Sequence record: MK310183
Source of the DNA: Phage NC-B
Direction: 5' to 3' (one strand)
Length of the DNA: 64,000 nucleotides
The number at the start of each line of letters is the position of its first letter. The first letter of the stretch is position 1. Shown one piece after another: positions 44,304 to 48,789 of the stretch. The translations under genes were made by a program, and so were the position numbers. The notes under the pieces were generated by a model. That model was not told where the DNA came from. It was given only the letters and a program-made list of their open reading frames with translations, and did not search any database.

Positions 44304-44519
44304 TTAATAATGAATCTTTTTATAAACCATATTGCTTCCGCCTTCTGTTTCAATCCCTTTCTGAATTGTAATCTTAGAAGCGCCAGTGTTAGCAATTTTC
44401 AAAGCTCGCTTAAATCTGCGAGCCTCTTTCCGTGTGGAGTATGTTGAGAAGCTAGGGATTGTACTATCAAAATTAAACCACTTAACTACCCAAAAAGTAA
44501 TCCAAGGTTTCTTTGCCAT
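44304..44519 (-). CDS. small basic protein, TRKEAR-motif family (paralog 3)
   Basis: 71 aa; shares W.V..W...F.TRKEAR..K and C-terminal Tyr with 46386..46598 and 46598..46813. Confidence 0.5.
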   Translation of the reverse strand: MAKKPWITFWVVKWFNFDSTIPSFSTYSTRKEARRFKRALKIANTGASKITIQKGIETEGGSNMVYKKIHY

Positions 44520-44520
44520 A

Positions 44521-44796
44521 TTACTTACCTTTCAGAGCCGTGTCTAAAAATGCACGGAGATTAGATTCAGTTTGCATACCTGACAAGCTGTAGTGAGCAC
44601 CACTATTCTTATCAGGGACTACAAAGGCTGGGATACTGCGAACACCGTATTCAATAGCTCGCTCTCGACCATCACCTTCAGAGATGTTTACCTCTTCAAC
44701 TTCAACGTTGTAATCAGCCACAACCTTCTTAAACACAGGAGCCATAGCTGCACACGGAGCACATGAATTACTATAAAACTTAATTACTTTACTCAT
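44521..44796 (-). CDS. thioredoxin-like protein
   Basis: VIKFYSNSCAPCAAMAP (CxxC), YGVRSIPAFVV, NLRAFLDTAL; start set to ATG 44796 (AAGGA SD). Confidence 0.7.
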   Translation of the reverse strand: MSKVIKFYSNSCAPCAAMAPVFKKVVADYNVEVEEVNISEGDGRERAIEYGVRSIPAFVVPDKNSGAHYSLSGMQTESNLRAFLDTALKGK

Positions 44797-44986: not shown

Positions 44987-45172
44987 TTATAGCATACAAA
45001 GAATAATAACAAGAGGTAGTGTTATAGCAAAATGTACCAGAACAACACTACCTAGCTTGATAGCTTTAACATCCTCTTCTGCTGGGTTTTCTTTAATTGC
45101 TAAATTTCGAGCTTTATATATAACAGTACCAACTATTAACGACCACACGGCCCACACAATCAGTGAAATCAT
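44987..45172 (-). CDS. small two-TM membrane protein (paralog 1)
   Basis: MISLIVWAVWSLIVGTVIY...KENP...LGSVVLVHFAITLPLVIIL. Confidence 0.5.
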   Translation of the reverse strand: MISLIVWAVWSLIVGTVIYKARNLAIKENPAEEDVKAIKLGSVVLVHFAITLPLVIILCML

Positions 45173-45181
45173 GTCAAACCC

Positions 45182-45361
45182 TTATGCAGTCAACAGGTGG
45201 AGAAGGAAAGGAATGACAACAGAGAAAACTACCAGAGCAATGCTACCATGTTTAATAGGTTTGGCATCATTTGGATTTTCTTTAAGCATCTGTTTCTGAG
45301 CCAGATAAACGATACCACCAACAAGAATTGCCCATACAGACCACACGATTGCTGAAAACAT
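45182..45361 (-). CDS. small two-TM membrane protein (paralog 2)
   Basis: MFSAIVWSVWAILVGGIVY...KENP...HGSIALVVFSVVIPFLLHL; start set to ATG 45361. Confidence 0.5.
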   Translation of the reverse strand: MFSAIVWSVWAILVGGIVYLAQKQMLKENPNDAKPIKHGSIALVVFSVVIPFLLHLLTA

Positions 45362-45424
45362 ATTCATATCCTTATAAAGAAGTTCGCCCCACCTCTTAAA
45401 CAAAGAGACAGGGCGGAGGTTTGA

Positions 45425-46000
45425 TTAGTAAGACACGTCACCACTGGAGTGGGACATGTTGCTCTTGACGAAGTAACAGAACTTGCCAAGACCTTCATTA
45501 ATTTCTTGAAGCATACTCTGATCAACTGGATAGGTGCACAAGTCTGAATCAAACTCGTCCATCTTCTCAATGATACACATAAGAGTCATGCACATGTCGG
45601 AAAGCATACCGTCCATGTCGAGATCAGCGTTACCTTCTCGGAACCAAGCATGACCTAAATAGTTACTAGCAGTAGCATCCACTTTAACACAGTGAAAGCG
45701 CATACGCTCTGCTATTCGGTCGCCTGCCTCACGAGCATAATCTTCTAGTTCATCGAACATACCATGAACACCTTGGAAACCAGCTCCAGAGACGTTCCAG
45801 TGGTAGTTCTTTGCTTTGATGTGTAGAAGTTCAAGGTTAGCTTGCACACCACACAAGATGTGTTCTAAGCTGTTACCACTAATCAGTTTATTCATTCCCT
45901 CAAGACGAGAAATAGAAGAGTCAGTAGTAGAGAATGGGTTGCTAGGACCCACTCTTGTTAGCTCTGGTAAATCGAAGACATTATTATGCATTAGGTGCAT
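45425..46000 (-). CDS. dps: Dps-like ferritin-fold protein
   Basis: LELLHIKAKNYHWNVSGAGFQGVHGMFDELEDYAREAGDRIAERMR closely matches the Dps ferroxidase-centre region (H, H, D, E positions conserved). Confidence 0.8.
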   Translation of the reverse strand: MHLMHNNVFDLPELTRVGPSNPFSTTDSSISRLEGMNKLISGNSLEHILCGVQANLELLHIKAKNYHWNVSGAGFQGVHGMFDELEDYAREAGDRIAERMRFHCVKVDATASNYLGHAWFREGNADLDMDGMLSDMCMTLMCIIEKMDEFDSDLCTYPVDQSMLQEINEGLGKFCYFVKSNMSHSSGDVSY

Positions 46001-46313
46001 CCCCTTCTAAGTTAGTTGAATTAGCTACATTACGAGCAATGTTATCCATGACCTGCTGTGTGATAACAATGCAATTCTGAGGGTCTACTGATTTAGAACG
46101 CCCCATTTCAGGGTCATAGACTTTGACTCGCTTGGCTGTTGAGCCAGTAACTTGCAACACTTTGAGAAGATAACCTTGATTTCCAATAGACCATGCAACA
46201 ACATCACGATTCTTGATATAACGACCAAGCATATCCCGATGATAGAACTGCTGCATAACTTTAGCTTTGCTAATCTCTTCAGATGGCGGAGCCACTTTAC
46301 TCAAATCTAACAT
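45984..46313 (-). CDS. hypothetical protein
   Basis: 109 aa ORF. Confidence 0.5.
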   Translation of the reverse strand: MLDLSKVAPPSEEISKAKVMQQFYHRDMLGRYIKNRDVVAWSIGNQGYLLKVLQVTGSTAKRVKVYDPEMGRSKSVDPQNCIVITQQVMDNIARNVANSTNLEGDAPNA

Positions 46314-46385
46314 TTCACTCTCTCCTGTTTAACACAATATTCTTATACTGTATATACATTTGAGAGTGATCATATCTACTACCAA

Positions 46386-46598
46386 TCAGTAGTAAACATA
46401 TCCAGAGATATATGAGCCTTTATCCCCACTAAACTCAAACCATCGATGCATGTCAGCACGTTTAACCGTACCGACTAGAGCTTTCATATTCTTCTTAGCA
46501 ATACGAGCCTCTTTACGAGTGTTAAACAGTTTGATACTATCTTTACCTAGATGGACACCATCTTCCCAAACAACACGAACAGCCCACATCTTTTTCAT
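46386..46598 (-). CDS. small basic protein, TRKEAR-motif family (paralog 2)
   Basis: MKKMWAVRVVWEDG...FNTRKEARIAKK...SGYVYY. Confidence 0.5.
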   Translation of the reverse strand: MKKMWAVRVVWEDGVHLGKDSIKLFNTRKEARIAKKNMKALVGTVKRADMHRWFEFSGDKGSYISGYVYY

Positions 46599-46813
46599 TA
46601 GTAATGTACCTTTCCGCTGATATAAATACGGCCTGAGGTATACTCATAGCCCTTGAGAATCTTAACAGAGATAAGATATCCAGTGTGTAATTCACTGAAT
46701 GATTTCTTAAGCCTACGTGCATCTTCTCGTGTTTTCTGGTAGGTCATGGTCACACCCCCACTTGTCCACTCTGTCTTAACTAACCAAATTCTTTTCATAA
46801 GACCTGCTCTCAT
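46598..46813 (-). CDS. small basic protein, TRKEAR-motif family (paralog 1)
   Basis: ...WLVKTEW...YQKTREDARRLKK...SGKVHY; stop/start overlap with paralog 2. Confidence 0.5.
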   Translation of the reverse strand: MRAGLMKRIWLVKTEWTSGGVTMTYQKTREDARRLKKSFSELHTGYLISVKILKGYEYTSGRIYISGKVHY

Positions 46814-47347
46814 TTAGACACCCTTAGAAGCAACTACACCTTCGCTACCATTATAGCGACCCTTAACTGCATAGGAATGTTCACCAGCATGTGAATGCTC
46901 AAACATCACCATCTGACCAACACGCATACCAGCACGAACTCGTAAGCTGTGGTGCTTGGTTACGTTATGAAATTCGAATGTCAGCTTGCTGTTGTTAAAC
47001 CCAGCGTCTGCCCAACCAGCATGTAAATGGTTCAGGCCACAACGAGCCATCGAAGATCGCAAAACAAACAAACTGGAGATGTTATCTGGAAGGTTGAACT
47101 CTTCCATTGAGTGAGCCAAGAAGAATTGTCCCGGAGTGATGATAATACCATCTTCAGGGATTTTTACTTCTTTCCACTTGAGGTTTTCTTTAGCATCAAT
47201 GTCAACAATACCATCAGCCTGTTCTTCAACAAGGATAGTATCACCAATGCGGATATCCACGCTAGCAGCGTTAACATATTTATGCTCCGCATCTAAAAAG
47301 CCATTATCAATAACGCTGTGTAATTCTTGAGAACCTAAAAGACTCAT
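46814..47347 (-). CDS. dcd: dCTP deaminase (Dcd/dUTPase superfamily)
   Basis: AASVDIRIGD, RSSMARCGLNHLHAGWADAGF, LRVRAGMRVGQMVMFE match Dcd. Confidence 0.8.
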   Translation of the reverse strand: MSLLGSQELHSVIDNGFLDAEHKYVNAASVDIRIGDTILVEEQADGIVDIDAKENLKWKEVKIPEDGIIITPGQFFLAHSMEEFNLPDNISSLFVLRSSMARCGLNHLHAGWADAGFNNSKLTFEFHNVTKHHSLRVRAGMRVGQMVMFEHSHAGEHSYAVKGRYNGSEGVVASKGV

Positions 47348-48789
47348 GAGTTTCTGTTTCCTTGTACGGATGATGCCAAATTATTAATCATGTTGCGAGC
47401 TGTTTCACGAGATAGTGTAACACCTGCTAAGTTGTTACGAAGCTCACCAGATAGTTCACGAGCAGTAGCTCGAAGTTCTGCACCAAGTGCAGTGTCAGAG
47501 TGAGCCAGACCGTTACGACGACCAACAGGTCGAGGAGCTTCGTTAGCGTCATTAGCTAATGATGCAAAACCAATATGAGCAGCTTCACGAGCCGCTATAG
47601 CTGATACTCGATCTTCTGTAGGGGTTGGTAAATCACCAACGTCTACACGTTCGATATCACTAGCACGAATTCCACCAACAACAGATCTTACTGTTTCCCA
47701 TGAACGACGAGAACGCTGCAAATCATCCATTGATGGAGAAGAAACAGGACGAGCAGTTCCCCCTGAGACATGCCATGTATGGTTGTGGGTGTCCGTCCCG
47801 GAAGAGCGTGAACTAACACGTAAGTCACCGGTAAAAGTTTCACGAGGTGCCACTGTAGAAGGAGCTGCGAATCTTGCCTGTTGCCAAGAATCACGTCTGT
47901 TGGTTCCCGGAGTCCAAGGCTGCGTGATTGCTTCAGCACCTATAGTGGTTAATCCGCTAGACCATTCTGTCTGTAGATTAACTTCCTCGTCCAGATAACT
48001 ACGACCCCTTTCCTGAGGAATGTTTAATATAGTTTCCATCATCTTCAGGGTATAATGACGACGCTGATTCTGATATAAATTTACACCAGCCATAGGTCCA
48101 ACTAAATCACTAATCAGGTGAACTTCTGGCTCACCGAAAGCTCCCATTGCAAGGTGCATATATTCAGTAGAACTGCTATAAACTGCAACAGTTGCTTCAG
48201 GCCACTTCTTGTGAACATACTTCATTTCACGACTAGATACCACAGGAATGTCACGAGTGTATGACATTGCAAACAAACCTTCGTTTGACACATACAGATT
48301 ACCAAGAGTCATAAACCCTTGACAGATCATAGGGAAGCGACGGCTTAAAGTGTCCATATCCAAAGGTAGATTAATCATCATCTGGATTTTAACTTGATCA
48401 ATCTCAATTTCCAGAATCTCTTGGAAAGTGAAAAGCGCTTCAGCATAAGTTGTCCCGTTAACAGGTTGAACTAGTCGAGATGTTACTTGAAGTCCCTTAC
48501 TCTCTGTCCAAGACAAGAAGTTGTCGAGGAACAGTGCAGCATTGCCTACGTTAGCAGGGCTATTTTCCTGACGAGTGTTCCAACGAAGACCGCCTTGAAC
48601 TAGGAAGATATCAACATCATTCGGAGTTCTATTTTGGAAGAACGTATCACGGATAGCACCACCTGCAATAACAGGATAGATGCCATCAGGGACTACGTTA
48701 TCTCTGATCAAATTACGAATCAGGTCAAGCCCTACACTGAGGGCTTCTCCTTCTTGAAGGTTCAATTCAGACAATGGAATCTTAATCAT
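47344..48789 (-). CDS. nucleotidyltransferase (CCA-adding / poly(A) polymerase head-domain type) with disordered Arg/Ser-rich C-terminal half
   Basis: VIAGGAIRDTFFQNRTPNDVDIFLV matches the GGxxRD...DxD head-domain signature; C-terminal about 230 aa are R/S/T/A/G-rich low complexity. Confidence 0.6.
   Translation of the reverse strand: MIKIPLSELNLQEGEALSVGLDLIRNLIRDNVVPDGIYPVIAGGAIRDTFFQNRTPNDVDIFLVQGGLRWNTRQENSPANVGNAALFLDNFLSWTESKGLQVTSRLVQPVNGTTYAEALFTFQEILEIEIDQVKIQMMINLPLDMDTLSRRFPMICQGFMTLGNLYVSNEGLFAMSYTRDIPVVSSREMKYVHKKWPEATVAVYSSSTEYMHLAMGAFGEPEVHLISDLVGPMAGVNLYQNQRRHYTLKMMETILNIPQERGRSYLDEEVNLQTEWSSGLTTIGAEAITQPWTPGTNRRDSWQQARFAAPSTVAPRETFTGDLRVSSRSSGTDTHNHTWHVSGGTARPVSSPSMDDLQRSRRSWETVRSVVGGIRASDIERVDVGDLPTPTEDRVSAIAAREAAHIGFASLANDANEAPRPVGRRNGLAHSDTALGAELRATARELSGELRNNLAGVTLSRETARNMINNLASSVQGNRNS

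Follow-up and report, generated by a model that had tools for sequence, protein, structure and literature searches.

A Dps-family mini-ferritin gene and its candidate partner in the middle operon of a phiEco32-like podophage

Gene pair, signals and neighbours at the locus

The stretch of DNA that we analysed (64,000 nucleotides of Phage NC-B, sequence record MK310183; hereafter the window) comes from a phiEco32-like podophage of the Gordonclarkvirinae (Kuravirus/Suseptimavirus). The DNA surrounding the locus is 96–98% identical to that of Escherichia phages 4E8, AnnaHegner_Bas87, 101114UKE3 and SU7, and about 82% identical to that of a second phiEco32-like coliphage group, e.g. 1-6bf and EcM-vB1, which also belongs to the Gordonclarkvirinae. 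This identity bears out the view of the first-pass annotation, made from the letters alone, that the ferritin-like gene at this locus is phage-encoded. Phages of the phiEco32-like type are virulent. The features of the locus are collected in Table 1.

The open reading frame of interest spans 45425..46000 of the window on the minus strand (191 aa) and carries both of the strings quoted in the first-pass annotation, KNYHWNVSGAGFQGVHGMFDE and DRIAERMR. A Shine-Dalgarno-like run, GAAGGGG, directly abuts the first ATG (46000) and lies 9 nt before the second ATG (45991), and MHN.. is the N-terminus of every homologue. Because the homologues all begin in this way and the spacing of GAAGGGG fits the second ATG, the coding sequence most likely starts there, giving a protein of 188 residues. 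This start overlaps the stop codon of the upstream gene within ATGCATAA. The upstream gene, which encodes a gp68-like protein, is translationally coupled to the Dps gene.

The AF2 model of the gp68-like protein is a small five-stranded β-barrel with a C-terminal helix (pLDDT 82). Its fold matches in the PDB are to PWWP, Tudor and KOW β-barrels, some of them solved with nucleic acid, and all are weak (best E = 7e-3, none at E <= 1e-3). From this model the general fold class alone, a small β-barrel, appears assignable. A few gp68-like homologues carry a precomputed PF23835 assignment; the Pfam search run here gave no PF23835 match. In Privateer, Aeromonas phage LAh_8 (Lahexavirus) and a metagenomic relative, a homologue (36–38% identity) immediately precedes the Dps gene; in phage 7-11 the homologue is 1.3 kb from the Dps gene. 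We regard the gp68-like protein as a candidate Dps partner.

Upstream of the pair we find a sigma-70-like promoter, TTTACT-N16-TATGAT, at 46396..46369 (minus strand). It is followed at 46361..46351 (minus strand) by AAATGTATATA, which matches the phiEco32 phage-sigma (gp36) motif tAATGTATAtA, and further downstream by a ribosome-binding site, AGGAGAGAG. The -35 element, spacer, -10 element and gp36 motif are nearly unchanged in phiEco32 and 4E8, whereas phiEco32 diverges in the stretch from the motif to the start codon. The SU10 paper (PMC4281155) likewise describes a sigma-70 promoter ahead of CDS68, as well as the gp36 motif. The hairpin downstream of the pair has a predicted RNA folding energy of -18.8 kcal/mol (z = -2.5); phiEco32 has an identical sequence over most of the two arms and differs in the loop and the uppermost part of the stem. 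The hairpin could terminate transcription, attenuate it or stabilise the RNA. Because conserved promoter elements stand upstream of the pair and the hairpin downstream, the gp68-like and Dps genes look like a discrete, strongly signalled bicistronic unit that opens the middle operon.

On either side lie the small proteins that the first-pass annotation had described as duplicated membrane proteins and small basic proteins, a description that holds: there are two members of PHROG 9296 and three of PHROG 4939. The two hydrophobic copies are a tandem duplication with 45% identity and two hydrophobic stretches; the window and 4E8 have two such copies and phiEco32 has one. The three basic paralogues have in common a T-R-K/E-E/D-A-R motif and a C-terminal aromatic ..Y, and PHROG 4939 copies number three in the window, three in the phiEco32 locus and four in 4E8. 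The flanks are variable, as these copy numbers differ between the three phages. Thioredoxin is among the genes conserved alongside Dps in all C3 phages (PMC4281155). In Kuravirus, Privateer, 7-11, LAh_8 and the metagenomic relative the Dps gene is surrounded by replication and nucleotide-metabolism genes, which across these lineages comprise dCTP deaminase, thioredoxin, ThyX, PhoH, NrdD/NrdG, primase-helicase and exonuclease. By this comparison of gene content, the Dps/gp68-like pair is core and conserved across C3-morphotype phages. The earlier suggestion of an accessory region thus fits the flanking small paralogues and does not fit Dps and its upstream partner, which belong to the middle operon.

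Farther upstream, a 481-aa protein (47344..48789, minus strand) sits between the dCTP deaminase and 3'-5' exonuclease genes. It matches phrog_12715, 'nucleotidyltransferase', with E = 2e-166 and has no Pfam family; its C-terminal half is low-complexity-looking and rich in Ser and Arg.

Table 1 Features at the Dps locus (window coordinates unless a relative's locus is named)
Feature	Coordinates	Strand	Description
Third small basic paralogue	44304..44519	-	71 aa, pI 10.3, PHROG 4939
Phage thioredoxin	44521..44796	-	91 aa, CxxC
Small hydrophobic protein, copy A	44987..45172	-	61 aa, PHROG 9296
Small hydrophobic protein, copy B	45182..45364	-	about 60 aa, PHROG 9296, paralogue of copy A
G+C-rich hairpin	45385..45415	-	13 bp; begins 10 nt past the Dps stop codon, followed by a poor U-tract
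Dps-family mini-ferritin CDS	45425..45991	-	188 aa from the most likely start, ATG at 45991; longest ORF reaches 46000 (191 aa)
gp68-like candidate partner gene	45984..46313	-	109 aa, pI 9.1, PHROG 10984, no Pfam family
Promoter region of the gp68-like/Dps pair	46351..46396	-	sigma-70-like promoter and phage-sigma motif
Small basic proteins, tandem pair	46386..46598 and 46598..46813	-	70 and 71 aa, pI about 10, PHROG 4939; upstream of the promoter
gp68-like homologues in relatives' loci	L003 2639-2923; L005 2609-2962; L004 1394-1660; L009 3679-4011		

Family membership, ferroxidase site and relatives

The gene product is almost certainly a Dps-type mini-ferritin. Pfam PF00210 (Ferritin) matches the ORF with E = 7e-8 and 32.9 bits, above its gathering cut-off of 24.5, and PHROG 3636 ('DNA binding protein') matches residues 40–184 with E = 1e-52. 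Of the 60 best PDB sequences listed by phmmer at E <= 1, 55 belong to the Dps family, with M. smegmatis Dps2 on top (E about 1e-9); E. coli Dps is a weak match in the single-sequence search (E = 0.04–0.08). A profile built from the ORF and 32 database homologues (33 sequences, 26–98% identity) gives full-length matches to solved Dps proteins with E-values from 8e-27 to 1e-12, namely B. anthracis Dlp-2 (8e-27), MrgA (1e-25), L. innocua Dps (1e-21) and E. coli Dps (1e-12).

The AF2 monomer model (mean pLDDT 83) is most confident in the core, residues 45–180, where most 10-residue blocks exceed 90 (range 87–98). Helices at 45–69, 76–102, 111–116, 129–149 and 158–180 correspond to A, B, a short BC helix, C and D, so the model has a four-helix bundle with the short extra helix in the long B–C loop that is typical of Dps. 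All of the top 50 Foldseek matches of this model in the PDB are Dps proteins, with TM scores (target) of about 0.7–0.9 and mostly rmsd values of about 1.2–2.3 Å across 134–143 aligned columns. The closest solved structure is that of M. smegmatis Dps2, deposited as 'DNA-binding protein under starvation'. Pfam, profile and fold, together with ligand conservation in the 33 sequences, agree with the first-pass proposal of a Dps-like ferritin with similarity to the ferroxidase helices.

The phage protein has the same four-helix bundle and BC helix as five solved bacterial Dps proteins, M. smegmatis Dps2 (2Z90), B. anthracis Dlp-2 (1JIG), B. subtilis MrgA (2CHP), L. innocua Dps (1QGH) and E. coli Dps (1DPS), and shares with all five a common H-W...H...D / D...E ferroxidase pattern. 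It is only about 20–26% identical to solved bacterial Dps and differs from them in being Cys-rich and in its non-basic N-terminal extension. Its gene is phage-encoded and read from a phage middle promoter, whereas bacterial dps genes are under OxyR, RpoS or PerR control. The equivalog cut-offs of NCBIfam for Dps (NF006975) and DpsA (NF041388 and NF052461) are missed, with scores of 34.6 against 114 bits, 31.1 against 170 and 17.4 against 300, respectively. Because these scores fall so far under the cut-offs, the phage Dps is a divergent subfamily and not an orthologue of a named bacterial Dps.

The ferroxidase positions, in the 191-aa numbering used throughout for residues, are H67 (codon 45802..45800), W68, H79, D83, D94 and E98. 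Residues 60–99 align without gaps with E. coli Dps 44–83, which maps these six positions to E. coli H51, W52, H63, D67, D78 and E82. We take the ligands of the E. coli centre to be H51, H63 and D67 from one side and D78 and E82 across the subunit interface, with the Trp alongside. H67, W68, H79, D94 and E98 are invariant in all 33 aligned sequences and D83 is kept in 32. Every ferroxidase-centre ligand is thus intact, and the site is predicted to be ferroxidase-competent. Loss of ligands or lack of a Dps-family match had been named at the outset as grounds for rejecting the proposal; we find the ligands kept and Dps matches down to E = 8e-27. Strong purifying selection acts on the gene (dN/dS about 0.08). 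In the comparison with phiEco32 the overall ratio is 0.077, with 0.04 for the core and 0.18 for the N-terminal extension; these values are approximate because dS is near saturation.

The gene is not new. Its orthologue in phiEco32 is gp67 (ABY52868.1, 84% amino acid identity), entered in 2008 as 'DNA-binding protein; member of the Dps family'. The orthologues in Kuravirus and Suseptimavirus (phiEco32 gp67, SU10 CDS67, 4E8 g068c, SU7, IME267 and others) are the same gene, with 95–99.5% amino acid identity in SU7-like phages. They also share its place, between the gp68-like gene and the genes for the small membrane protein and thioredoxin. Nothing essential differs from phiEco32; the window has two downstream membrane-protein copies where phiEco32 has one, and the basic paralogues are arranged differently. 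The SU10 paper of 2014 lists CDS67 among the few middle genes common to all five C3 phages then sequenced (PMC4281155), and conservation of the Dps gene in C3-morphotype podophages is noted both there and in the Privateer paper of 2021 (PMC7881722). Because gp67 has been annotated since 2008 and discussed in these two papers, what we report is a rediscovery of an existing annotation, and the novelty implied by the first-pass annotation falls away. As a discovery it adds little, and the residual question, that of the role of the gene, its partner and the N-terminal extension, is a modest one. Our literature searches found no functional, assembly, iron-binding or activity study of any phage Dps.

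More distant relatives, with 33–43% identity over the Dps core, are found in Privateer (QIN94861), Salmonella phage 7-11 (gp073), Cronobacter phage GAP52 and Aeromonas phage LAh_8 (gp125). They share the replication and nucleotide-metabolism context and are shorter (about 144–156 aa), without the MHNNxFDLP extension and most of the cysteines. A tblastn search of the phage collection finds the Dps protein in 133 records. All but two of these carry Escherichia, Shigella, Salmonella, Cronobacter, Proteus, Aeromonas or unspecified 'phage' names, the remaining two being Synechococcus phages, and those records that we inspected are C3-type podophages. Distant Dps-fold proteins are present in many other phages, as judged from fold matches in BFVD. 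Searched exhaustively with phmmer, a set of 1.84 billion representatives yields only 12 clusters at E <= 1e-10, and 555 at the looser threshold of E <= 1e-3. By these searches the phage Dps clade is compact and divergent. Recent capture of a host dps gene was considered and rejected, since in the profile search the host's own Dps (E = 1e-12) is a weaker match than Firmicute and actinobacterial Dps (1e-21 to 8e-27). The nearest clearly cellular relative recovered, with 26% identity, is the most distant match of the first protein search (P0038). It is a bacterial Dps encoded on metagenomic contig SRR28327201_4591 (L008) beside AhpC, an AhpD-like CMD protein and a LysR regulator. This is a classic peroxide-stress locus, and the protein can serve well as a cellular outgroup to the phage clade.

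The 'DNA-binding protein' and 'integrase' names

Most records name the product a DNA-binding protein, and the first-pass annotation states that Dps compacts and protects DNA. According to this explanation, the protein, perhaps by way of its basic partner, would bind DNA and compact the nucleoid, coating phage or host DNA in the manner of E. coli Dps in stationary phase or hindering host replication. The family does include DNA-binding members, as the deposited title of the Dps2 structure recalls, and the adjacent partner is basic, with a model that resembles Tudor/PWWP/KOW-type barrels, to which, however, its matches are all weak. The phage Dps itself is acidic, with a pI of 4.8 and a net charge of -14. 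Its first 50 residues hold one Lys and two Arg (net charge -2) and its C-terminal 11 residues neither Lys nor Arg. A charge count over the whole protein sequence finds no Lys/Arg-rich N- or C-terminal tail of the E. coli Dps type. In E. coli-type Dps it is the Lys-rich tail that mediates DNA binding, and some Dps proteins bind no DNA. Because the protein is acidic and lacks Lys-rich tails, the claim of compaction has no support in the sequence, and 'DNA-binding protein' is an inherited name with no sequence-supported function. We consider direct DNA binding by the phage Dps alone unlikely, and a nucleoid-compacting role as a whole highly improbable.

The second name is 'integrase', given to the Dps orthologue in many GenBank and RefSeq records, including those of IME267, 101114UKE3, MLP3, ES17 and KBNP1711. 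In NC_070982.1 (RefSeq), the CDS at 45258..45824 labelled 'integrase' is exactly the Dps ORF, and the sole 'integrase' label in the phiEco32-like group falls on the Dps gene. The product name alone, in the records of IME267, 101114UKE3, MLP3 and ES17, speaks for an integrase. In the Pfam search of the ORF at E <= 1 there is no integrase or recombinase family and only Ferritin passes, the protein recorded as 'integrase [IME267]' (P0003) carries PF00210 only, and both the fold and the profile matches are those of Dps. We reject an integrase identity outright; the name is a propagated annotation error. It could get therapeutic phage candidates of the group flagged as temperate. Both current product names are therefore misleading, 'DNA-binding protein' as unsupported by the sequence and 'integrase' as plainly wrong.

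Proposed role and alternatives

We are left with a puzzle: in every C3-morphotype podophage lineage, the replication operon has kept at its start a putative ferroxidase-competent mini-ferritin along with a dedicated partner. That the protein is expressed is shown by published mass spectrometry, of SU10 (PMC4281155; CDS67, 6 peptides, 35.8% coverage) and of Privateer (PMC7881722). Iron sequestration with an anti-oxidant effect is the best-supported mechanism, with ferroxidase activity and protection as its predicted elements. By analogy with bacterial Dps, the phage protein would assemble as a hollow shell of 12 subunits. Fe2+ would bind at ferroxidase centres between two-fold-related subunits, where H67, H79 and D83 would face D94 and E98 with W68 alongside. 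The bound iron would be oxidised, preferably by H2O2, and then stored as a ferric core. The gp68-like partner gene and the Dps gene would open the middle (replication and nucleotide-metabolism) unit and be transcribed together. During replication of phage DNA, the shell would most likely rid the infected cell of free Fe2+ and H2O2. Less Fenton damage to phage DNA and to the enzymes of nucleotide metabolism would result. We give this role, the scavenging of free Fe2+ and H2O2 for the protection of replicating phage DNA and enzymes, an even chance or slightly better. A point against it is that the host already owns a Dps, which makes the added benefit to the phage less obvious.

The same shell might instead act as an iron reservoir or chaperone, feeding iron to nucleotide-metabolism enzymes (phage NrdD/NrdG in relatives, or the host ribonucleotide reductase) or withholding it from the host. 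The Dps gene always lies inside a nucleotide-metabolism module. In LAh_8 it is flanked by NrdG on one side and an NrdR-like regulator on the other, in Privateer it adjoins a fragment of a ribonucleotide reductase (RNR) and in the metagenomic relative it is near NrdD. The intact ferroxidase ligands are also consistent with this role. Neither the phiEco32 locus nor this part of the window has an RNR gene near Dps, and yet the gene is kept there. Dps proteins are, moreover, generally iron sinks rather than donors. Reservoir and protectant share the same biochemistry, so that sequence is unable to separate them; we think a reservoir unlikely.

A further explanation, which we hold to be quite unlikely, places the protein in the virion. 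Dps would then lie in or on the long prolate capsid, maybe together with the basic β-barrel partner, and would protect or organise the genome or enter the next host. In its favour, a Dps homologue, whose function the authors call unverified, was detected by mass spectrometry in Privateer particles purified by CsCl step and equilibrium gradients (PMC7881722). This hints at a role outside the cytoplasm. Dense iron-loaded shells could, however, co-band with phage in CsCl, and the Privateer protein does not have the long N-terminal extension. The conserved extension of the Kuravirus proteins, on the other hand, counts in favour of packaging. The SU10 sample was purified no further than PEG precipitation and also held polymerase, PhoH, sigma factor and other non-structural proteins (PMC4281155), so that detection there speaks for expression and does not prove packaging. 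In the phage collection the gene is almost wholly confined to C3-morphotype podophage lineages, which speaks for this explanation; its location, on the other hand, is the replication module, where a middle promoter drives it, and not the late structural module. 

Fold matches in BFVD bear on the same question. Several long proteins from uncultured Caudovirales named 'prohead protease' (A0A6J7XDU5, A0A6J7WPK9 and A0A6J7WIS1) contain Dps-fold regions, which suggests capsid-targeted Dps domains in some phages. In the long Dps-containing proteins found here (P0125, P0115, P0139, P0074 and others), Pfam recognises ferritin only and no protease domain, and PHROGs add PHROG 3636 only, plus one unknown PHROG in one protein. 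Fusions of protease and Dps are thus uncorroborated, and we set them aside. A virion-borne Dps would be loosely analogous to the ferritin-like cargo of HK97-fold encapsulins. The Privateer signal gives an unusual role in association with the capsid a small probability; that a Dps shell, perhaps with the β-barrel partner, is a true component of the C3 capsid and guards packaged or freshly ejected DNA strikes us as very improbable. If it were so, an HK97-type head would carry ferritin-like cargo as encapsulins do, and the MHNNxFDLP extension would be a targeting or partner-binding peptide.

Returning to the scavenging role, a simple ferroxidase model leaves the N-terminal extension and the 5–10 cysteines of Kuravirus-type Dps unexplained. 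The extension (residues 1–44, MHNNxFDLP ... S-x-x-R-L-E/D-x-M) is specific to the clade; at about 45 residues it is conserved in Kuravirus-type Dps and missing from Privateer/7-11-type and E. coli Dps. Inspection of the alignment by eye for a prohead-protease cleavage motif of T4 or phiKZ type within it gave one candidate, LPE, which is not conserved in the homologues and was rejected. Cysteines number 0–3 in 7-11-type Dps and are absent from E. coli Dps. The Dps of the window has them at positions 50, 104, 137, 142, 155 and 175, of which 137, 142 and 175 are conserved inside the Kuravirus-type subclade. With a conserved phage thioredoxin gene nearby, redox regulation or an extra metal site involving these cysteines is conceivable.
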